Shown here: one piece after another, positions 2,845-13,012 of the stretch | Layout of the letters: every line of letters begins with the position of its first letter | Numbering within the stretch: position 1 is the first letter of the stretch | Virus record (IMG/VR): IMGVR_UViG_2700989400_000004 | Location: 1-64,000 of that record | Source of the DNA: a virus | Lineage: Duplodnaviria; Heunggongvirae; Uroviricota; Caudoviricetes | Direction: 5' to 3' (one strand) | DNA length: 64,000 bases | Translations under genes and position numbers: made by a program | The notes under the pieces: model-generated | Database searches by the model: none | The model's input: only the letters and a program-made list of their open reading frames with translations | Told to the model about the DNA's origin: nothing

Positions 2845-2865
2845 AAAAGCCCCTTACTAAGGGGC
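2845..2865 (-). terminator. rho-independent terminator after lipoprotein gene
   Basis: GCCCCTTA/TAAGGGGC stem followed by T-tract on minus strand. Confidence 0.55.
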
Positions 2866-2879
2866 TTTGCACGGATTGT

Positions 2880-4022
2880 TTAAAGGGAACTTTTTTTCGC
2901 CCCTTCAATTTCTGCCTGACAAATTTCGTCATTTGTAAATGAGTACTGCAGATAGACATATCCCTGAGTGGAATTGTTCGCTCTGGCCTCAATAGATATA
3001 GTATCAATATTGTTTTTTAATGGTATTTCTTTTGTTCCCTTCCATGTGGCAGATAAGAAGCGTTCTTTTTTGTTTAGCCCCCTCATCCAGTCCTGAGGAT
3101 CTTTCCAAATTGAACCAGCCAGCAAAAAGTCTGTAGTATCAGCCTTTCCATACAGAGAACTTAAAGAATTACTCAATTCTTCAAACTTTGATTTAAGAGC
3201 CAATCCATAGCTATCAGTATCAATATTTTTTCCTAAAGCCCGTATTTGACATAAACCAGCTTTCGGGGAGATCAGCAAACCATACATTTCAAAATCTGCG
3301 TTTTGCTTCGGTAATTTATCAGAAGTATACAGATTCACACTGTCTGGTAGTGGCTTGAGCTTAGCACCGATCATATCTTCGATGTTTTTCTGTGTAAGAC
3401 CGGCTTCTAAGCCAAACGGACCATCCGCTGGCGGGAGTAAAGGAAGTTGCTCTTGGGAATTTTTGGCTGTTACTTCCGTTTCAGTACTGTTTTTTGCGTC
3501 ATTAGCTTGTACTGATGCCAGCTTAACTTCAGCGAGGCCATACTTGGCTGTGAGGTACTTTTGCTGCAACATTGCCATGGTCTGCTCTTCAGTGGCAACA
3601 GTAGATAATTTTAGTACCTTTATCAGACCACCACTATACTGACGAGCATCAGCTTTGGCTTCGTTGATTTTTGCATCTAAGCTGTCAATTTCAGTTTTAA
3701 TTGAAGCCGCAAGCTCAGGATCAGGTTTTACTCCAGATACAACAACATCAATTTTGGCACCTGATTCAATAGCATTAATACGCTGTTCCAAAAGCGCTTT
3801 ATTAGTTCCTAATATTTCCAGTCTTGCTGTTGTCAGATTTTTTATCAACCCACCAGAAAACTGCTGGTCAACTTCCTTAGCTGCTGATATTTCACCTTCC
3901 GTTTGCGACAGTTCAGCTTTAAGAGCAGCTACTTCCTGTTTCTGTTCTGGAGTTAACTCTTCTGGCCCACATCCGGTTAACATTACTATACCGACTAATG
4001 TTGCAATTAAAGTTTTATTCAT
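2880..4022 (-). CDS. lipoprotein with repeated QxxSGGLIK motif
   Basis: Signal peptide plus lipobox LTGC; 380 aa; two copies of (Q/R)Q(F/Y)SGGLIK. Confidence 0.6.
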   Translation of the reverse strand: MNKTLIATLVGIVMLTGCGPEELTPEQKQEVAALKAELSQTEGEISAAKEVDQQFSGGLIKNLTTARLEILGTNKALLEQRINAIESGAKIDVVVSGVKPDPELAASIKTEIDSLDAKINEAKADARQYSGGLIKVLKLSTVATEEQTMAMLQQKYLTAKYGLAEVKLASVQANDAKNSTETEVTAKNSQEQLPLLPPADGPFGLEAGLTQKNIEDMIGAKLKPLPDSVNLYTSDKLPKQNADFEMYGLLISPKAGLCQIRALGKNIDTDSYGLALKSKFEELSNSLSSLYGKADTTDFLLAGSIWKDPQDWMRGLNKKERFLSATWKGTKEIPLKNNIDTISIEARANNSTQGYVYLQYSFTNDEICQAEIEGAKKSSL

Positions 4023-4156: not shown

Positions 4157-4444
4157 TTACTGACTACAATTGTTCTTTTTTTGGTATTTCCTGAATGCCT
4201 CACCATTGGGCTGATGTAATCCCATCCCGGCATGTGCCCGGCTGATGGTTTCGCGCATCTCCCCGAAATTATCCTGCCTTGCTGGTGGGCGTGCTGCCTT
4301 GTGGATACATTCCGCGCGACGTTTTGCCGCCTGTTCCCGTGCCTTGTCATCATTCGCCAGCATGATGACCTCAGCCCACCGCGCCGCCGCTCTCCGGTAC
4401 AGTCCACGCGCTTCCAGTGCTTCCGCTTTGCTGTCGTGAATCAT
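4157..4444 (-). CDS. PerC family transcriptional activator
   Basis: 95 aa; N-terminal MIHDSKAEALEARGLYRRAAARWAEV typical of PerC-like proteins of P4-like elements. Confidence 0.6.
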   Translation of the reverse strand: MIHDSKAEALEARGLYRRAAARWAEVIMLANDDKAREQAAKRRAECIHKAARPPARQDNFGEMRETISRAHAGMGLHQPNGEAFRKYQKKNNCSQ

Positions 4445-4998
4445 GCGCCTGTTTTCTCCCTGGCTGCCCGGCGCTGGCGTTTGCGCTTCTCATTCAGCGC
4501 CATCAGCCGCATTTCTGCCTCGTTCTGTTTCTGTGGTGTCACCTCGCCGCACGGCTGGCCTTTCAGGTCATAGCGCACCCCACCAGCCATTAAGGCGCGG
4601 TAATAGCGCGGACACTGCGCATAAGATGCCAGCGTCGCACGTAATGCCCCTGGACCGAATGCCAGCCCCCTGACGGCGATATCCTGCATCAGGTCGTCGA
4701 ATATCCCCACCTTAAGTGGCTTCGGTGCTTCCCGGCTGAATAATTCAGGCCACAACTCAGTGAGACGGTTAACGCGCCTGCGGTTTTTGCGCTGGCGTTT
4801 GGTCATATGCCGCCACGGTGTCGCCCCTGTGGGCTTCTGCTGCGCTTTCTGGTTACCGGGCATCACTTTATGTGCCGATGTGGTTTTATCCTGCTTCTGT
4901 GCCGCCTGCGTCGTTTTCTGCGGCGTGCCGTAAATACCTTTCGGTTTTCTGTTAATGGTCAGTTTTGTCATGCTCTGCCCCATCATTGTTGCCGTCAT
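4441..4998 (-). CDS. ProQ/FinO-domain RNA chaperone-like protein
   Basis: LKVGIFDDL, RATLASYAQCPRYYRAL and RYDLKGQPCGEV align with the ProQ N-terminal domain (LKIGIFQDL, RSALRLYTSSWRYLYGV, RVDLDGNPCGEL). Confidence 0.6.
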   Translation of the reverse strand: MTATMMGQSMTKLTINRKPKGIYGTPQKTTQAAQKQDKTTSAHKVMPGNQKAQQKPTGATPWRHMTKRQRKNRRRVNRLTELWPELFSREAPKPLKVGIFDDLMQDIAVRGLAFGPGALRATLASYAQCPRYYRALMAGGVRYDLKGQPCGEVTPQKQNEAEMRLMALNEKRKRQRRAAREKTGA

Positions 4999-5149: not shown

Positions 5150-5430
5150 ACCGGGATATCGGGATATAAACAAAAAAACCCCATTTATTTCATAGCGTTA
5201 TGTGATTTTTCATATCCCGCCATATCCCGGTAAGTTTTTTTTTGCTTATGCATCAATAAGATATTGCGGGATACATTCCGGGATACGGTTATTTTGTTTG
5301 TTTTACAACCACTCGTAAACCTAAATACCGGGATACGGCGGGATACAGCGGGATACGACAACAACACATAAATAACTGATATTTATGCAATATATTTTTC
5401 ATATCCCGATATCCCGCATATCCCGCGATT
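5150..5430. repeat. iteron cluster, about 12 copies of CGGGATA in both orientations (putative satellite replication origin)
   Basis: AT-rich 300 bp immediately 3' of the primase gene; direct and inverted CGGGATA/TATCCCG groups near 5152, 5210, 5265, 5330 and 5400. Confidence 0.6.
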
Positions 5431-5457: not shown

Positions 5458-7590
5458 CTATTCGTCTTCTGCCTGATCAATCAGCACGATAAATCGCTGC
5501 TGTGTTCCGTTAATCTTCACTGTTTTCGATGTCCAGCGACCAGGTTCTGCACAAACCAGCATTCCGGCTTCTTCCAGCGCCTGACACCCAAAGTTCCTGG
5601 ATATACCGCATAAAATTTCGCTATCAAACACTGACGGGATAATGTGATATTCGGGTTTTCCATCCTCACGCTTACCGCTGACAAGATAGCCTGCAAGATT
5701 GCTTATACGGGATGCATAGTGGTTATCCATATCCCCATTGCTTTTCCCGTAGGTATAAGGCTGAAAACGACTCAGGGCATGGCGCTGAATAAAGTCACGG
5801 GCGCGACTGATGACCTGATATTTTTCCCGGTTTTCCAGCCCGAAATCCTGTAGCCAGTCATCAAAAGCCCGTTGCGTTGCTTCCCGGCATTCTTCAGCTG
5901 TCCAGCCAGTAATTGCGGTGGCAAGCTCTCCGGCTGCATCCAGCATGGCGAATCGCGATGCCACTCGCCTTACCTGTGACGAGGCATTTTCAGGCAGATT
6001 TCCCAGCCAGGCATTTTCTTTATCTGAAGTGGTGTTGATAGCCAGCTCCTTGTGAGCGGATAACCAGCGCACCCACTCACGTCCCGCAGCGCCACAATAA
6101 TTTGATGAAAGTCGCTTTATGGCCCTGGCATGTTGATCACCATCGTCATAACCGTTAAACACCGTTGTATCGGTAAAGGGAATGCTTAGCAGTCGCACCA
6201 GTTGCCCTGCCTTTGGGGCAATTCCCCCTTTTAACAGGAAGGTTTCAAAATCTTCTTCTCCGGTGCTTAGTGCCGCTATTTTCCAGCGCATTACCGCACG
6301 ATTACCGCCGTCCTTGCGCCCCTGAATCCTGCCCACACCGTTAAACAGGCTGTAGGCGGATTGCGCAATGTCATTAACCCTTCCTCCCTGACCAATTTCA
6401 TCAATAGGGATAAAACCGTCATTACGTGCAGCTGCTTCCACTGTCAGCCCGTGCCGGGTGGCATCCCACGAGAGTTTAAGCATTTCAGGGTCGCCATAAA
6501 GGCTGGTGGCGGCCTCCACAGTCGTGGTTTTCCCCGCTGACGACTGCGCGAAAAGATGAATACCAAAACAACTACCACCCACAAGGGAATTTAGCGGGGC
6601 TGCCAGCCCGACCAGCACCCCAAGCATCATTGAGTGATTGCCACGCATCAGAGAAGCAACATTATTTCGCCATTCATGCACCGTGCCCCTGACAATATAG
6701 CCTTTGATGGCGGCAGATCCGCCGCAGAATGCTACGGGACGGTCAGGCACACCAATCACCTCGCCATCAGGCATAACATAGGCTCCACAATGCCAACCTG
6801 CTGTTGATGTGACCTCCCACACCGTGCGATCTCCATGACGTTGCAGGTATTCCGCCAGTTTGTTCAGTAAATGGGCACTGGTAGTGATTGCAACTCCCCG
6901 CCCACGTAATCGCGCCCATCCTGCGGGCATACCGATTTCATTGCGCGGCATCGCTTCGTAAATAATTTTTTGTGTCCCTTCCGGGATCATTTCAATGATC
7001 AGATACGCTTCCCTTCCGTCGTTACCAATACCTGCCGTGCGCATCCGGTCACTCAGCCAGGTTTCTTTATAATTCATCTCCTCTGCCCTGGTGTTGGGGA
7101 TTGGCTCGATATACCAGAGCGCCCCGTCTTTTTCGGTAATATGCGGTTTCATGGGGTCTGTTTTACCGGGTGATCCACCAGCTATTCCGATTCCTTCAGG
7201 AATGGTTTCCCCGCGCTCTGTCTGTTCGCGGATCCGTTGCAGGTAGTCGCGCCAGTTCTCCGGCTCCCGGTCGGTGATGCCTTTGTATAATTTCGCATCC
7301 TGTACGCCAGCCAGCGCCAGCTTTTCAGCGATAGCATTGATCTGGATTGGCTCTATCTCCCCCGCGATATAAACACGCGCAAAGCGGCGCTCATCGTCGA
7401 TAATGCGGATATTAGCCAGATCTGCCAGTTGCGTTGGCCCCAGGTAAACAGGTGGCACGTTATCGCCGTGTTTTCGTCCTTCGCTTTCAATCCAGTGTTG
7501 AGCATGGGCGTAAGCATCCGTCCCGGCAAAAATGATTACCTCGGTGAATTTATCCTTTGGCTGATATTTTAAATTCGGTGCGTTTTTCAC
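5458..7590 (-). CDS. primase/helicase replication protein (Toprim plus NTPase, P4 alpha-like)
   Basis: 710 aa; Walker A-like AQSSAGKTT; domain order typical of satellite primase-helicases. Confidence 0.8.
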   Translation of the reverse strand: MKNAPNLKYQPKDKFTEVIIFAGTDAYAHAQHWIESEGRKHGDNVPPVYLGPTQLADLANIRIIDDERRFARVYIAGEIEPIQINAIAEKLALAGVQDAKLYKGITDREPENWRDYLQRIREQTERGETIPEGIGIAGGSPGKTDPMKPHITEKDGALWYIEPIPNTRAEEMNYKETWLSDRMRTAGIGNDGREAYLIIEMIPEGTQKIIYEAMPRNEIGMPAGWARLRGRGVAITTSAHLLNKLAEYLQRHGDRTVWEVTSTAGWHCGAYVMPDGEVIGVPDRPVAFCGGSAAIKGYIVRGTVHEWRNNVASLMRGNHSMMLGVLVGLAAPLNSLVGGSCFGIHLFAQSSAGKTTTVEAATSLYGDPEMLKLSWDATRHGLTVEAAARNDGFIPIDEIGQGGRVNDIAQSAYSLFNGVGRIQGRKDGGNRAVMRWKIAALSTGEEDFETFLLKGGIAPKAGQLVRLLSIPFTDTTVFNGYDDGDQHARAIKRLSSNYCGAAGREWVRWLSAHKELAINTTSDKENAWLGNLPENASSQVRRVASRFAMLDAAGELATAITGWTAEECREATQRAFDDWLQDFGLENREKYQVISRARDFIQRHALSRFQPYTYGKSNGDMDNHYASRISNLAGYLVSGKREDGKPEYHIIPSVFDSEILCGISRNFGCQALEEAGMLVCAEPGRWTSKTVKINGTQQRFIVLIDQAEDE

Positions 7591-8082: not shown

Positions 8083-8440
8083 GACTTCCCCCCTGAATGA
8101 TCCGGTAATCGCAACGGGTCAGCAGTTCGCTAAATTCCGGCAGTGTTCCGAAACAGCAATCATCACGCAGCCGTTCGCGGGATACCTCGACGCCGTTTTC
8201 GTAGTGACTCACCATGCGTCCGGTAAAATGCAGATCATCATCGTGATGGTTCGTTAACGGCTTAATAAGTCGCGCACGTTCTGCCAGTTCCAGCAATGCT
8301 TCAACGCTTCCGGCAATTGCACCATCCGGCAGGTGATAATTACTTACCACGCGTCCATTCTCCACGTTAACCAGTAGCTGCTCGGTGAATTTCTCACGAA
8401 ACTGAATGCTGTTAAGGTCAGAAATTGACAGGTTATGCAT
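8075..8440 (-). CDS. hypothetical protein with two tandem FTGR...FSEL-type repeats
   Basis: 121 aa; internal duplication visible by eye. Confidence 0.45.
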   Translation of the reverse strand: MHNLSISDLNSIQFREKFTEQLLVNVENGRVVSNYHLPDGAIAGSVEALLELAERARLIKPLTNHHDDDLHFTGRMVSHYENGVEVSRERLRDDCCFGTLPEFSELLTRCDYRIIQGGSHG

Positions 8441-8798
8441 GGTGCACCTCCTGGCGAATACGGGCAGCGAATACCATCACGCAGCCATCAGGAGATTGCT
8501 GACGCGCTTCCTGTTCGCTGGTGGCCTCGATGTGAATTACGCGCGGTTGTGCTGTGCTCAGGGCGATAAAACGCCAGATAAAATTGTTCTCGCATTTCTG
8601 AATAAACAGCGTGTTTTCTTCGCGCCCTTTCCATGTTGCCGAGATATAGCCCATGTCATTGAGCATCTCGCAGGCATCAACCAGCGTATCAGCGGCTACG
8701 TGTACAGTGTTTTTACCGTCAGCTATGCAATCACGGTGCACCGCCAGGAAGGTGTATATAAATTTAGGGTGAGTTTGGGTATGCTGTGTTCCAGCCAT
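8433..8798 (-). CDS. hypothetical protein, first gene of leftward operon
   Basis: ATG at 8798 with GAGGT Shine-Dalgarno; 121 aa; same frame remains open upstream to 10019. Confidence 0.5.
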   Translation of the reverse strand: MAGTQHTQTHPKFIYTFLAVHRDCIADGKNTVHVAADTLVDACEMLNDMGYISATWKGREENTLFIQKCENNFIWRFIALSTAQPRVIHIEATSEQEARQQSPDGCVMVFAARIRQEVHHA

Positions 8799-8863
8799 AA
8801 TCGTTACCTCGTTTAACGGTTTGGTTAGACGCCCTGCATGTGTGCCACCACTGCGGGGCGTTG

Positions 8864-8898
8864 CTGTATATACACCACAATCATTAGTGTATATACAG
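8864..8898. promoter_or_regulatory. operator-like perfect inverted repeat CTGTATATACAC-N11-GTGTATATACAG
   Basis: 12-bp perfect arms seen directly; lies between divergent 8433..8798 (-) and 8989..9294 (+). Confidence 0.6.
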
Positions 8899-8988
8899 AT
8901 TAGATTTAAGTGTGCTACAGTGTCAAGTGTTTTATCAACACACCTTTTGGTGTAATGTGTACACACCTCAAAATAACCGGACATTCTG

Positions 8989-9294
8989 ATGGCAACAGGA
9001 AACATCAACAGCAGATCGCAAATGAAAAATATCCGCTTCCCCCATGATGTAATCGAGGAAATGGAAAATTCGAAAACGGAAGGGGAAACAATAGCCGCTT
9101 TCGTGATTACAGCCGTTCGCGGTGAAATCGCCCGCCGCCAGGCAGAAGGAAGCGGAGAAAATCCCCTGGTTTCTTCGCTCGATGCACTGGCGCAGGTGGA
9201 AAAAATCGGTGTCAAAGCAGCCGAGGAGATCGGGCAACTCGTCACCGTCGCGCGTGAAGAACTCCAGCGGCGCAAGGCCAAAGAACAGGAGTAA
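8989..9294 (+). CDS. putative Arc/Mnt-like ribbon-helix-helix regulator
   Basis: KNIRFPHDVIEEMEN...AAFVITAVRGEIARR resembles the Arc repressor fold pattern; conflicts with a long open frame on the opposite strand. Confidence 0.35.
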   Translation: MATGNINSRSQMKNIRFPHDVIEEMENSKTEGETIAAFVITAVRGEIARRQAEGSGENPLVSSLDALAQVEKIGVKAAEEIGQLVTVAREELQRRKAKEQE

Positions 9295-10011
9295 CCATCA
9301 CCAGCGCCGTGGTGTGAGGAACTACGGTGCATCGTTTTACAGGGCAGCGCCATGACCAACAAAGAATCAACCAATACACCATCACCGGCACGGAAAAGAC
9401 AGCGCAGAAAGATAGCGTACGAGCATGAGTCAGACAGATTCGCGCCCTGTGCGTTTATCCTTGAGAAATTCCTTAAAGAGTACAGGCGCACAAAAATGGG
9501 GTCGCATACCTGGAAAACATCGCGGCATGGCGATGTTAAAGAGCAGGAATAGCCCACCAGCAAGCCAGCATATTCACCATAATGACCCTCAGTTAAACCT
9601 AGAGTCATTGGTGCAAAGCTGACACATTGCCCACCAGCCGCAAATGTGGCATTGTTGGTGATGCGTTCAAGTATGTAGCTTTTCCACTGGCGGCTCTCTG
9701 CGGTCGCCTTTGTTTTATCCAGAACGAAATCAGACATCAGATTGATCAGCACCTGGCGACCTGACAAAATCGCATCAGTCGCGCCACCAGCAGTATTTTT
9801 TGCTTTCCGGACAGCTTGGCCAACTGCATTTTGCAGCAAAATATTCTGCATTTCTGGCTTACTGTGATAACAGTGATCAGCGCCTTCACTCTGTACGACC
9901 ACAACGCTATAATCTGCCTCGTAGACAGTAAGCAATATGGCGCAGTAAGCGACTTGTTCACAAAGGCGCTCCGGCAACGGGGCGCTTTTTCTTTTTGTAA
10001 CGGTCAGAGCA

Positions 10012-10812
10012 TTACACATGGCTGTTTTCCTCCATGCGACGGGCTAACCAACGCTGCGAAAGACGAATTAATTCAGCTTTCCGCTGGTGGTAGTCCTGGC
10101 CTAACTCAATCAGCGTGATATTGCTCTGCTCAAGGTAAGAAAGATGCTCAAGCTGCAACGTGCTCATGTGGTCGCGTGGTTCGCCTGTGATGCCGTTCGC
10201 CTGCGCCCACTGTTTTGCAGTCATGCCACCCAGCACGATACGCGCCAGCATATTGGCTTCCGTGGTGTAGTGGTGCTGTAGAGTGTTTTTACCCAGCTCA
10301 GCCCGGTACGCCTCCAGCGCGGCACACATTGGCTTAAAGTAGCTGGCAACTGTGATACGGGCTTTCAGTTCCCGGCGTAACACTGCGGAACGCACTGGCG
10401 CTACCTTGTGTAGCTCCTCCTCGCATTTGATAAAGTACTGACGAACGGCGCGGCCCTGTTCGGTGCGTTCGACCATCGCCAGTTCTTTCGCCATGTTCAC
10501 TGTGATGATGTACTCAAGAGCTGTTTGCTGGCGAGATTTTGCGCTCACCGGATCGGGTCGGCTCAAATATTCAACAACCTCATAATCCACGCCTTCCGTG
10601 AACCCGTATTCTTCAATGCGCCCCTTGATCCACGAACGGAAAACGCGCCCTACACCTAACGCCTTATGTAACGCTCTGGCGCTAACAATAGTGGTTTCAC
10701 GCCCACCAATAACGCCGGAAATAACCGGAATAATTTCAGCGAAATTTTGCAGATTCTGTTTTTCAGGCCGAACGAAGCCCCGCCCCTGTACAGGCGTATA
10801 TCCAGTATTCAT
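10012..10812 (-). CDS. phage antirepressor-like protein (Bro-N/AntA-type N-terminus)
   Basis: N-terminal IIPVISGVIGGRETTIVSARALHKALGV...EYGFTEGVDYEV. Confidence 0.6.
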   Translation of the reverse strand: MNTGYTPVQGRGFVRPEKQNLQNFAEIIPVISGVIGGRETTIVSARALHKALGVGRVFRSWIKGRIEEYGFTEGVDYEVVEYLSRPDPVSAKSRQQTALEYIITVNMAKELAMVERTEQGRAVRQYFIKCEEELHKVAPVRSAVLRRELKARITVASYFKPMCAALEAYRAELGKNTLQHHYTTEANMLARIVLGGMTAKQWAQANGITGEPRDHMSTLQLEHLSYLEQSNITLIELGQDYHQRKAELIRLSQRWLARRMEENSHV

Positions 10813-10864: not shown

Positions 10865-11053
10865 TTAGTGAACTGCCTCGCGGCTGTCCTTCCATGCCAG
10901 AACTTCGGATAAAGACCAGCCAACGGAACGACCACCGAGTTTACGCCGTGATGGGAATTGTCCGGCTTTTTCCAGGCGGTAGCGGCATGAACGGCTCAGG
11001 CCTGTAAGTTGCTGACATTCTTTTTCACGTATAAAGCGATCTGTGCTTAACAC
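10865..11053 (-). CDS. alpA: AlpA family transcriptional regulator
   Basis: 62 aa; LTGLSRSCRYRLEKAGQFPSRRKLGGRSVGWSLSEVLAW is the AlpA-type HTH signature. Confidence 0.75.
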   Translation of the reverse strand: MLSTDRFIREKECQQLTGLSRSCRYRLEKAGQFPSRRKLGGRSVGWSLSEVLAWKDSREAVH

Positions 11054-11416: not shown

Positions 11417-12667
11417 TTATATTTCTCTGGCTATTGGCAGTGTGGTTACGTTTTCGTGAGCACCTGCCAGTATCTCTAATCGCTCTGTCCACATATCCAG
11501 CGCGTTACGTTTCGCATCAATATAGCGGGAGTGGTTATAGACTCGTTGCATCCCTGGCATCTGGTGGGCGGTAAGTTGCTCGACAATATGCGGATCCACG
11601 CCTAAATCGTTCAGCATCGTGGTAAACGTGCGCCGTATATCGTGCAGGGACCAGTGAGGATGGTTTAATTTTTTGTGCGTAAATCTGCCGTATTGTGACA
11701 CGCTGGCTTCCTGTTTCAGTTCTCCGAGTAATAACCCTGTGTGCCTGTTCTGCTCCACCAGTTGCGTGACGAACGGCAAAATGCTTTCCGGTATTGGCCT
11801 GAATATGGCGACCTTCGTTTTGCTGTGTTCTTTCGGTACCGTCCAGAGCATTTCCTTAAAATCCCACTCCCTGATCTCCGACAGCCTCAGTTCTCCAGTT
11901 CGGCAGCCAAACACAATCAGGAGGCGGATTAGCGCGCTGTAGTAGGGCGGGAATATTTTTTTATCCAGCGCCTGTAATAATTCGCCCAGTTCTTTGTTAC
12001 TAAGCACGCGTTCGCTTATGCCTGGCTTTTTGCCAACGTCCACCACGTTGAGATCATCCAGAACGTTACTGACTGCGTAGCGACGTTTTCGGCAGAACTT
12101 AAGCGCCTGTTTACACGCCTGCATCATGTGACCAGACGTTACAGGGGATTTTTTGCGTATCCGGTCAAAACAGGCCAGCCAGTGACGTAACTCGCATTTA
12201 TCCAGTGGCATATTGCCAATATGCTGTATGACGTGATTATTCAGGCGGCTGTTCAGGGAGACGTAATCGACACGGTTTTCCTTTACGTGCATTTCCAGCC
12301 AGTAGCTGATCGCATCACCCACCGTTACCGGCTTTAGTGCTTCCTGTATGGAGTAATTAAGCTCATGGCGTGGATTTTTTCCTTCTGCCAGCCATGCGCG
12401 ACACTGTGCCGCTTTTTCCCTGGCTGCTTTCAGGCTCAGATCAGGATAATTTCCCAGCTTCAGGCGTTCCGGTGATACCAGGCGTCCAGCTCCTGCCCTG
12501 TAGGTGAAATACCAGGTTAACAAGCCGCTGGTGGAATGCCTGACGCTCAGGTTTCCACCGTCATTAAGAAATGTGGTTTTTGGGGCTGGTGTGCCGTTGA
12601 TTTTTCTTAGCTGTGTATCGCTCAGTTTGTTAAGTGCTCTGCTCATAATTTTGAATCCGGTCATCAC
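11417..12667 (-). CDS. int: tyrosine-type site-specific integrase (P4-like)
   Basis: 416 aa; N-terminal arm-binding-like domain and C-terminal catalytic region (HxxR...Y); start uncertain. Confidence 0.85.
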   Translation of the reverse strand: MMTGFKIMSRALNKLSDTQLRKINGTPAPKTTFLNDGGNLSVRHSTSGLLTWYFTYRAGAGRLVSPERLKLGNYPDLSLKAAREKAAQCRAWLAEGKNPRHELNYSIQEALKPVTVGDAISYWLEMHVKENRVDYVSLNSRLNNHVIQHIGNMPLDKCELRHWLACFDRIRKKSPVTSGHMMQACKQALKFCRKRRYAVSNVLDDLNVVDVGKKPGISERVLSNKELGELLQALDKKIFPPYYSALIRLLIVFGCRTGELRLSEIREWDFKEMLWTVPKEHSKTKVAIFRPIPESILPFVTQLVEQNRHTGLLLGELKQEASVSQYGRFTHKKLNHPHWSLHDIRRTFTTMLNDLGVDPHIVEQLTAHQMPGMQRVYNHSRYIDAKRNALDMWTERLEILAGAHENVTTLPIAREI

Positions 12668-12910: not shown

Positions 12911-13005
12911 ACCGGCGCAGAGGAGACAATGCCGGATTTAAGACGCGGATGCACTGCTGTGTGTACTGTAGAGTCTGGCGGATGTCGACAGACTCTATTT
13001 TTTTA
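12911..13005 (+). ncRNA. mcaS: McaS (IsrA) small regulatory RNA
   Basis: Matches recalled McaS sequence ACCGGCGCAGAGGAGACAAUGCCGGAUUUAAGACGCGGAUG..., ends in a GAGTCTG...CAGACTC hairpin plus U-tract, convergent with abgR as in K-12. Confidence 0.7.
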
Positions 13006-13012
13006 TGCAGTT

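Follow-up and report, generated by a model that had tools for sequence, protein, structure and literature searches.

Proteobacteria have three main families of RNA chaperones, and FinO-domain proteins are one of them. Those characterized on mobile elements all regulate their own element through a structured RNA (PMC9977716, PMC7491321, PMC8053102). The target of FinO, together with FinP, is traJ and that of FopA, together with Inc, is repZ (PMC9977716, PMC7491321), and PcnR binds a stem-loop of the repR mRNA (PMC8053102); both FopA and PcnR act on RNA of their own element (PMC7491321, PMC8053102). Here we describe a gene of this family in the IMG/VR virus record IMGVR_UViG_2700989400_000004, of which positions 1 to 64,000 were analyzed (this whole stretch of 64,000 nt is hereafter termed the window). 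The gene lies in a predicted phage satellite, and its product is on balance a probable binder of RNA 3' ends.

How such a protein can hold RNA has been described for RocC. In the RocC-RocR crystal structure, a pocket of G52, Y87 and R97 buries the 3'-terminal nucleotide, and a helix N-cap with S70, K71, K73 and R75 reads consecutive phosphates of the hairpin; G52, Y87, R97 and R75 touch the 3' end and hairpin of the terminator and are required for function (PMC9674577). The satellites concerned are the phage-inducible chromosomal islands (PICIs), for which EcCICFT073 is the experimentally validated prototype in Gram-negative bacteria (PMC6092414); helper-phage induction and high-frequency transfer have been shown for EcCICFT073 and EcCIMP1 (PMC6092414, PMC11773190). 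ProQ/FinO-like genes have been noted, at the level of annotation only, in the Enterobacter cloacae PICI AVS0889 (PMC13612085) and in Vibrio satellite-plasmids (PMC13230959), and we found no functional study of a satellite-encoded FinO-domain protein in the literature.

Domain, fold and RNA-contact residues

The gene lies in a minus-strand open reading frame (ORF) of 185 codons (4441-4998), the maximal ORF in the ORF list, and residues are numbered accordingly below. Because the starts of homologues, the RefSeq start and a conserved Shine-Dalgarno sequence all fall at Met10 (position 4971), the true coding sequence (CDS) is most likely 4441-4971. Thirty-three homologues start at codon 10 of the window ORF with MTKLTINRKPKG, and the RefSeq version of the gene is 531 nt long (WP_000164228.1). 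A GGGG/GAGG Shine-Dalgarno-like element lies 5' of the Met10 ATG and is kept in six diverged islands, whose leaders upstream of the gene showed no conservation beyond this sequence. The corrected protein is 176 aa long with a mass of 20.0 kDa, a pI of 10.9 and 38 K+R versus 13 D+E residues.

Pfam model PF04352 (ProQ/FINO) matched residues 73-177 through its profile positions 5-108 of 109 with an E-value of 3.1e-23. The score of 82.3 bits was far above chance and above the gathering score of 27 bits, which bears out the ProQ/FinO RNA-binding domain proposed in the original prediction, a note made from the bare sequence. A phmmer search against PDB sequences returned FinO-domain proteins only, led by the ProQ N-terminal domain (5nb9, 6e-12) and FinO (1dvo, 4e-10) and followed by the weaker matches NMB1681, RocC and Lpp1663. 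Four PHROG families of phage proteins of unknown function also matched the protein, the top one being phrog_21591 (5.7e-22).

With 34 family sequences as input, AlphaFold2 gave a model whose predicted local distance difference test (pLDDT) values were 88-95 over residues 70-180 and below 50 at residues 20-60, the latter being a linker predicted to be disordered. Helices were predicted at residues 67-82, 99-110, 116-127, 130-138 and 155-184 and strands at 141-143 and 149-152, with the core flanked by basic helices, namely 67-82 before it and the long 155-184 after it. When the model was searched against the PDB with Foldseek, the top 27 matches were all FinO domains, with E-values from 9e-7 to 4e-2, and the next match had an E-value of 2.8. 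The matches comprised RocC in free and terminator-bound form, NMB1681, FinO, Lpp1663 and the ProQ N-terminal domain. RocC was the top match when normalized to the target (TM-score of 0.83-0.84), and FinO 1dvo superposed on the model with a root-mean-square deviation (rmsd) of 1.8 A over 98 columns. Structure prediction with superposition on FinO and ProQ, which had been suggested as a check, thus yielded a FinO-like fold.

The RocC pocket residues, namely G52 of the beta-turn, Y87 and R97 (the latter two being Y70 and R80 in ProQ), correspond to G98, Y132 and R142 of the satellite protein, which are at least 90% conserved in the 34 family members. R75 of RocC corresponds to R120, positioned after the helix N-cap and conserved across the family. 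S70, K71 and K73 correspond to G115, P116 and A118, leaving R120 alone of the N-cap element; the N-cap helix starts at the same place as in RocC (P116 in the AlphaFold2 model), and the family motif reads G-x-G-x-L-R. Given that the pocket residues are conserved and only the Arg of the N-cap is kept, the pocket that grips the 3' end appears intact and the edge that reads the hairpin appears variant. The N-terminal extension is composed, in order, of the conserved MTKLTINRKPKG motif, a Lys/Gln-rich linker predicted to be disordered, and TPW, which immediately precedes the basic helix KRQRKNRRRVNR. M10, T14, K18 and K38 are conserved in it, and its charge is 11 K+R against 1 D+E.

Within the FinO-domain family, sequence comparison places the protein in a separate clade that is orthologous to none of ProQ, FinO and FopA. 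Of the earlier description as a ProQ paralogue, membership of the FinO-domain family stands and the specific tie to ProQ does not, as the protein is similarly distant from ProQ, FinO and FopA (about 31-33% identity in the domain) and has no ProQ C-terminal domain. ProQ proper was ruled out by the score of the NCBIfam ProQ model NF003434 (57.2 bits versus a cut-off of 127) together with the missing linker and C-terminal Tudor-like domain; the protein ends 8 residues past the FinO-domain match, and a second Pfam domain was not found. FinO proper was ruled out by the NCBIfam FinO model NF010317 (62.5 bits versus a cut-off of 136), by the exclusively chromosomal homologues in E. coli and by the lack of a FinP match in Rfam. 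Membership of the FopA clade was also ruled out, the BLASTP alignment with FopA of pCol1B9 having 31% identity over 83 residues and a pairwise E-value of 7e-6. Homology to the N-terminus of FinO was rejected as well: MTKLTINRKPKG was likened to PVLTLKRKTEG of FinO by MAFFT, but hhalign aligned the domain only.

In a profile search of 1.84 billion representative proteins, 4823 FinO-domain clusters were obtained at an E-value of 1e-3 or less, and only 21 of them, the close clade, were obtained at 1e-30. The homologues included truncated copies and carried generic names, 'ProQ/FINO family protein' or a variant in 120 of 120 among the matches listed. The identification as such is therefore correct and not new: RefSeq already uses the name 'ProQ/FINO family protein', and this is an ordinary annotated gene.

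Genomic slot and proposed function

The host element appears to be an EcCICFT073-type Gram-negative PICI of about 13 kb. The term satellite had been used in the original prediction and is justified, because the int-alpA segment is 86% identical to EcCICFT073 at the DNA level and the order of the backbone is the same; no phage structural or lysis genes were found among the gene content of the island. The backbone genes and origin (int, alpA, primase, origin) share one direction, on the minus strand. The position of the gene right beside the origin, likewise proposed beforehand, was confirmed by 12 CGGGATA iterons between the primase stop (5458) and the FinO-domain gene. The layout of this iteron origin matches that of published PICI origins (PMC6092414), and the whole window contains 22 copies of CGGGATA where 7.5 are expected.

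We surveyed synteny in 80 related IMG/VR contigs, most of them 10-17 kb long. The upstream neighbor of the FinO-domain gene was a primase gene in 33 and a gene for a single-stranded DNA-binding protein (SSB) in 31. The order primase-origin-(SSB)-FinO-like-(PerC) was found in E. coli, E. ruysiae, E. albertii, Salmonella and Serratia oryzae, and the order SSB-PerC-ProQ-like-capsid in four of the contigs. In Serratia the gene directly abuts conserved genes of the packaging module, and in EcCICFT073 the same slot is filled by a hypothetical gene, SSB and PerC. The FinO-domain gene thus occupies a backbone slot between the replication and packaging modules. Its stop overlaps the start of perC as ATGA (4441-4444). 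A directly downstream perC was seen in 52 of the 80 loci, every one of which (52/52) had the 4-nt ATGA overlap, suggesting that translational coupling is obligatory wherever perC follows. The gene was seen with both CFT073-type and DUF927-type primases, by which a tie to one primase family was ruled out. The neighborhoods of distant homologues in phages phiSG1 and JK004 were uninformative.

The slot itself holds varied sets of SSB, FinO-domain and perC genes, such as SSB+ProQ-like+PerC, ProQ-like+PerC and SSB+PerC+ProQ-like+capsid. The typical acidic tip with which its SSBs terminate reads DDDVPF or EDEIPF. The Serratia oryzae homologue (L004, 9992-10465) is the most distant of those in islands, with 42% identity and without the MTKLTINRKPKG N-terminus. 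Conserved small ORFs and an Rpp-like gene follow it directly, and perC is absent.

Of 5426 complete E. coli genomes, 1158 contained DNA homologues, which amounted to 1636 places and to as many as nine in a single genome; every one of these places was chromosomal and none was on a plasmid. The clade also occurs in Salmonella, Citrobacter and Serratia. Pairwise ratios of nonsynonymous to synonymous substitution (dN/dS) were 0.24-0.38 at dS of 0.15-0.74, and therefore the gene is under purifying selection. Core residues were invariant across the 34 diverse family sequences.

Taken together, we consider it somewhat probable that the protein is a satellite-encoded binder of RNA 3' ends, which would be expressed with the replication operon and regulate transcripts of the satellite and possibly of its helper. 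The gene has the same orientation as the long icd-primase operon. A promoter of its own was not recognized in the 150 nt upstream, whether scanned or inspected visually, and neither a sigma-70-like promoter nor a terminator consensus was found on the minus strand between the primase gene and the FinO-domain gene. Because nothing of this kind separates it from the primase gene, and because it lies about 40 nt after ssb in relatives, expression with the replication operon is probable. A helper phage would thus induce the island, the replication operon would be transcribed and the protein would be made. Its FinO core would clamp the base of an intrinsic-terminator hairpin and bury the 3'-terminal nucleotide of the U-tail as in RocC, FinO and ProQ, while the basic N- and C-terminal helices and the disordered tail may add affinity and help complementary RNAs to pair. 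Bound RNAs would then be protected from 3' exonucleases or polyadenylation, or sense-antisense duplexes would form faster, or both, and the net effect would be a tuned expression of satellite, and possibly helper, transcripts during induction.

Plausible substrates would be the 3' end of the gene's own operon and the terminator-ended transcripts of the zone 9550-10000, in which the ylcI and alpA-antA units are transcribed toward each other and two strong plus-strand terminators are located. Together with the terminator 9962-9989, a promoter-like site at 9885-9913 (+), TTCACT-17-TATAAT, defines a putative antisense RNA of about 80 nt, located on the strand opposite the boundary between antA and the next ORF, with a fold of -25.7 kcal/mol (z = -2.0). 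Its promoter and terminator are conserved in four islands, and the promoter hexamers survive the divergence of a Salmonella island.

Several points weigh against the 3'-end-binding reading. No partner RNA could be tied to the gene, and Rfam searches at gathering thresholds over the whole window and at E-values of 5 or less over the island revealed no FinP, Inc/RNAI or C4/CI-type RNA; the matches were McaS, outside the island, and others at chance level only. The candidate antisense RNA (9920-9998) was rejected as a specific partner and kept as a possible ligand only, because EcCICFT073 has this segment without having the FinO-domain gene, and islands L008-L011 have the gene but not the promoter part of the segment. 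The N-cap Ser shared by RocC, ProQ and FinO is Gly here, the two flanking Lys are Pro and Ala, and even the N-cap Arg is replaced by Val in the Serratia homologue; given this variant N-cap, the recognition of hairpins may be different or weaker. The two primase families that accompany the gene indicate that it is not co-inherited with one replication initiator. The validated PICIs EcCICFT073 and EcCIMP1 both lack the gene, which is therefore an optional module and not essential for the PICI life cycle (induction, replication and transfer).

This optional status is compatible with another explanation, that the FinO-domain protein and PerC form a host-directed accessory pair, a cargo that reprograms host expression for the lysogen's benefit in virulence or fitness rather than for that of the satellite's own life cycle. 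PerC would act at transcription, and the FinO-domain protein would add to or compete with chromosomal ProQ for the 3' ends of small RNAs (sRNAs) and mRNAs. The coupling in all 52 loci with perC would fit such a pair, and its spread through 1158 of 5426 E. coli genomes, which carry as many as nine copies each, agrees with importance for the host. PerC-family proteins of PICIs are reported to alter how the host expresses LEE (the locus of enterocyte effacement), but the PerC homologues of EcCICFT073 and EcCIEDL933 are reported to have had no effect on LEE1 (PMC11773190). Furthermore, the gene sits within an induction-dependent replication operon with no recognizable promoter of its own, its place beside primase or SSB is kept while the downstream cargo varies, and perC is absent in Serratia and at other loci. 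We regard this explanation as rather unlikely, but the best placed of the alternatives.

Less likely still is a controller of copy number or replication, like FopA-Inc-repZ or PcnR-repR, that would bind a stem-loop of the primase operon or an antisense RNA and limit initiator synthesis after induction. The gene does adjoin the origin and primase, and often SSB too. Two of the three characterized plasmid FinO-domain proteins control replication initiators (PMC7491321, PMC8053102), and Vibrio satellite-plasmids are reported with parA, repA and a ProQ/FinO-like gene (PMC13230959). However, the gene accompanies either type of primase and PICIs of either type can be without it, and no convincing pair of antisense promoter and terminator was found opposite the DUF4222-primase leader. 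Between islands the ProQ-like protein is also better conserved (72-77% identity) than the adjacent primase (42-47%).

A function in conflict, in which the protein would sequester or destabilize an RNA of a competitor or of a host defense (a helper antisense or leader RNA, the antitoxin RNA of a type I or III system, or a retron non-coding RNA), seems improbable. FinO domains read the shape and not the sequence of RNA, which would make foreign terminator-ended RNAs accessible (PMC9674577), and downstream of their replication module PICIs encode functions in interference and immunity (PMC6092414, PMC13612085), but no PADLOC or anti-defense family matched the protein. The idea of a decaying, functionless remnant of plasmid finO, to which the erosion of many chromosome-captured FinO-like genes (PMC9977716) and the truncated copies among homologues would lend themselves, is already contradicted by the selection and conservation data, that is, by the intact ORF with its conserved Shine-Dalgarno sequence, the low dN/dS, the invariant core, the conserved synteny and coupling and an identity to plasmid FinO of only about 32%, and is hardly credible.

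Control of satellite or helper RNAs by the FinO-domain protein, if real, would give PICI biology an additional, RNA-level layer, and the protein could also change ProQ-dependent sRNA networks in strains that carry the island. A more speculative extension, to which we give little credence, is that the protein and its coupled PerC constitute a regulatory pair, one at the RNA level and the other at the DNA level, that is deployed on induction and rewires helper or host expression, with the variant G-x-G-x-L-R protein capturing terminator-ended helper or satellite RNAs. Were this true, phage-satellite conflict would have its first demonstrated RNA chaperone. What is new here is the confirmation of the fold, the variant N-cap motif, the separate clade with a FinO-like layout, the fixed slot, the universal coupling to perC, the frequency in E. 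coli and the negative results on a partner RNA and on linkage to a primase. About one in five complete E. coli genomes carries the clade, whose place in this well-studied class of satellite is fixed.

The host island

The coordinates of the gene, its domains and the other features of the island are collected in Table 1.

Table 1. Features of the satellite island, in coordinates of the window
Feature	Position	Strand	Basis
FinO-domain protein CDS	4441..4971	-	ORF list, homologue/RefSeq start, Shine-Dalgarno, composition, dN/dS
FinO/ProQ RNA-binding domain, residues 73-177 of 185-aa ORF	4468..4782	-	Pfam, PDB matches, AlphaFold2, Foldseek, conservation
N-terminal extension	4801..4971	-	pLDDT, conservation, charge
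TerS/Rpp-like helix-turn-helix (HTH) protein, 180 aa	1153-1695	-	gene content
Small ORFs	between lipoprotein gene and HTH gene	-	gene content
Terminator ending the proQ-like/perC/lipoprotein unit; second candidate 3'-end ligand	2846..2868	-	strongest minus-strand terminator of island
Predicted 380-aa lipoprotein	2880-4022	-	signal peptide + Cys
PerC-family regulator	4157..4444	-	Pfam PerC, 109 bits
Replication origin	5152..5425	.	12 CGGGATA iterons, both orientations, flanking AT-rich DNA
DUF927 primase/helicase (replication initiator)	5458..7590	-	Pfam DUF927, 139.7 bits; PHROG DNA primase, 2e-84
AntA antirepressor, then Icd-like gene and small ORFs, then DUF4222	between alpA and primase	-	gene content
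YlcI/YnfO-type gene pair	8989-9294 and 9352-9552	+	gene content
Plus-strand terminator	9689-9708	+	terminator scan
Strongest intrinsic terminator of island, 12-bp GC-rich stem and U-tract	9962..9989	+	terminator scan
AlpA-like regulator	10865-11053	-	gene content
Integrase	11417-12667	-	gene content

In strain 357900 the same element of about 13 kb was found between smrA and mcaS/abgR, and the island of the window is likewise inserted at this place rather than at a tRNA gene. At 12911-13006 (+), about 250 nt from the start of the integrase gene, lies a full-length McaS/IsrA sRNA gene (118 bits, E-value of 2e-21). ARAGORN found no tRNA in the whole window. A search for attachment sites revealed no direct repeat of at least 13 nt linking the integrase flank to the rest of the window, and the island extends on the left to just beyond the window.

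Strain 55989 carries nearly the same cargo at thrW with another integrase. Between that island and the window, the replication, ProQ-like, PerC and lipoprotein proteins are 99-100% identical, the Rpp-like protein 89% and the integrase 26%. In turn, the int-alpA module of the window is the part 86% identical to EcCICFT073, whose primase differs. The comparison with 55989 and CFT073 suggests modular exchange between PICI islands. The 55989 island ends with an AAA ATPase and a DUF4435 protein (L001, 6579-8535), a pair that resembles the PARIS-type defense module. The left end of the window instead encodes a 194-aa hydrophobic protein (230-814) and a small ORF.

The lipoprotein has a coiled-coil-like N-terminal half with internally similar segments and matched no Pfam, PHROG or PADLOC family significantly. 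Only a subset of the related contigs has it, and it seems to be variable cargo inserted downstream of perC. PADLOC models gave no match for the FinO-domain protein or its neighbors except a marginal, partial mad1 match of the HTH protein (E = 7e-4). An ORF of 528 codons at 8433-10019 (-) runs uninterrupted for 1587 nt through the Icd-like gene and the divergent promoter region and also covers the antisense strand of the ylcI/ynfO pair. This ORF is absent from the RefSeq annotation, and its first 156 codons have no Pfam match. In translation, the same 156 codons are 65-82% identical to stretches of the Salmonella islands L012 and L013 that have no called gene, and the ORF may represent a real protein, a fusion or conserved non-coding DNA.

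Comparison with known FinO-domain systems

Among the solved structures, the N-terminal domain of E. coli ProQ (PDB 5NB9) was the top sequence match, with an E-value of 6e-12 and 33% identity. Residues K35, D41, R58, Y70, R80 and D82 of ProQ and its GxPCGE turn are conserved in the satellite protein, whereas S53, K54 and R62 are not. ProQ is encoded by a core chromosomal gene, unlike the satellite protein, which has a 65-residue N-terminal extension in place of the linker and C-terminal Tudor-like domain. RocC of L. pneumophila (PDB 7RGU) shares with the satellite protein the pocket for the 3' nucleotide and R75, but not the N-cap Ser70 or Lys71/Lys73. It also differs in being a chromosomal competence regulator whose C-terminal tail is long and whose partner is a trans-acting sRNA.

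FopA of pCol1B9 and PcnR of IncI2 plasmids are, like the satellite protein, encoded by mobile elements and composed of a basic N-terminal region followed by a FinO domain, without a ProQ-type C-terminal domain. In contrast to these systems, no Inc-like or repR-like RNA was found here and the gene is not tied to one initiator family. The N-terminus of FopA also resembled the N-terminal motif of the satellite protein in the MAFFT alignment, a visual likeness only, without hhalign support. The ProQ/FinO-like genes of AVS0889 and of the Vibrio satellite-plasmids are the same kind of gene on the same kind of element, a likeness by annotation only.

FinO of IncF plasmids (PDB 1DVO) gave the best superposition among the solved structures. 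The satellite gene belongs to a phage satellite in the chromosome rather than to the end of a tra operon, FinP and traJ are absent here, identity in the domain is about 31-32%, and the N-cap Ser-His-Lys-Lys of FinO is Gly-Pro-Gly-Ala. On the other hand, both proteins are encoded by mobile elements, FinO has 186 aa compared with 176-185 aa here, and domain residues 75-170 align with FinO residues 76-171 in hhalign. Both also combine a basic N-terminal extension with a long C-terminal helix, and in size and layout the satellite protein resembles FinO.

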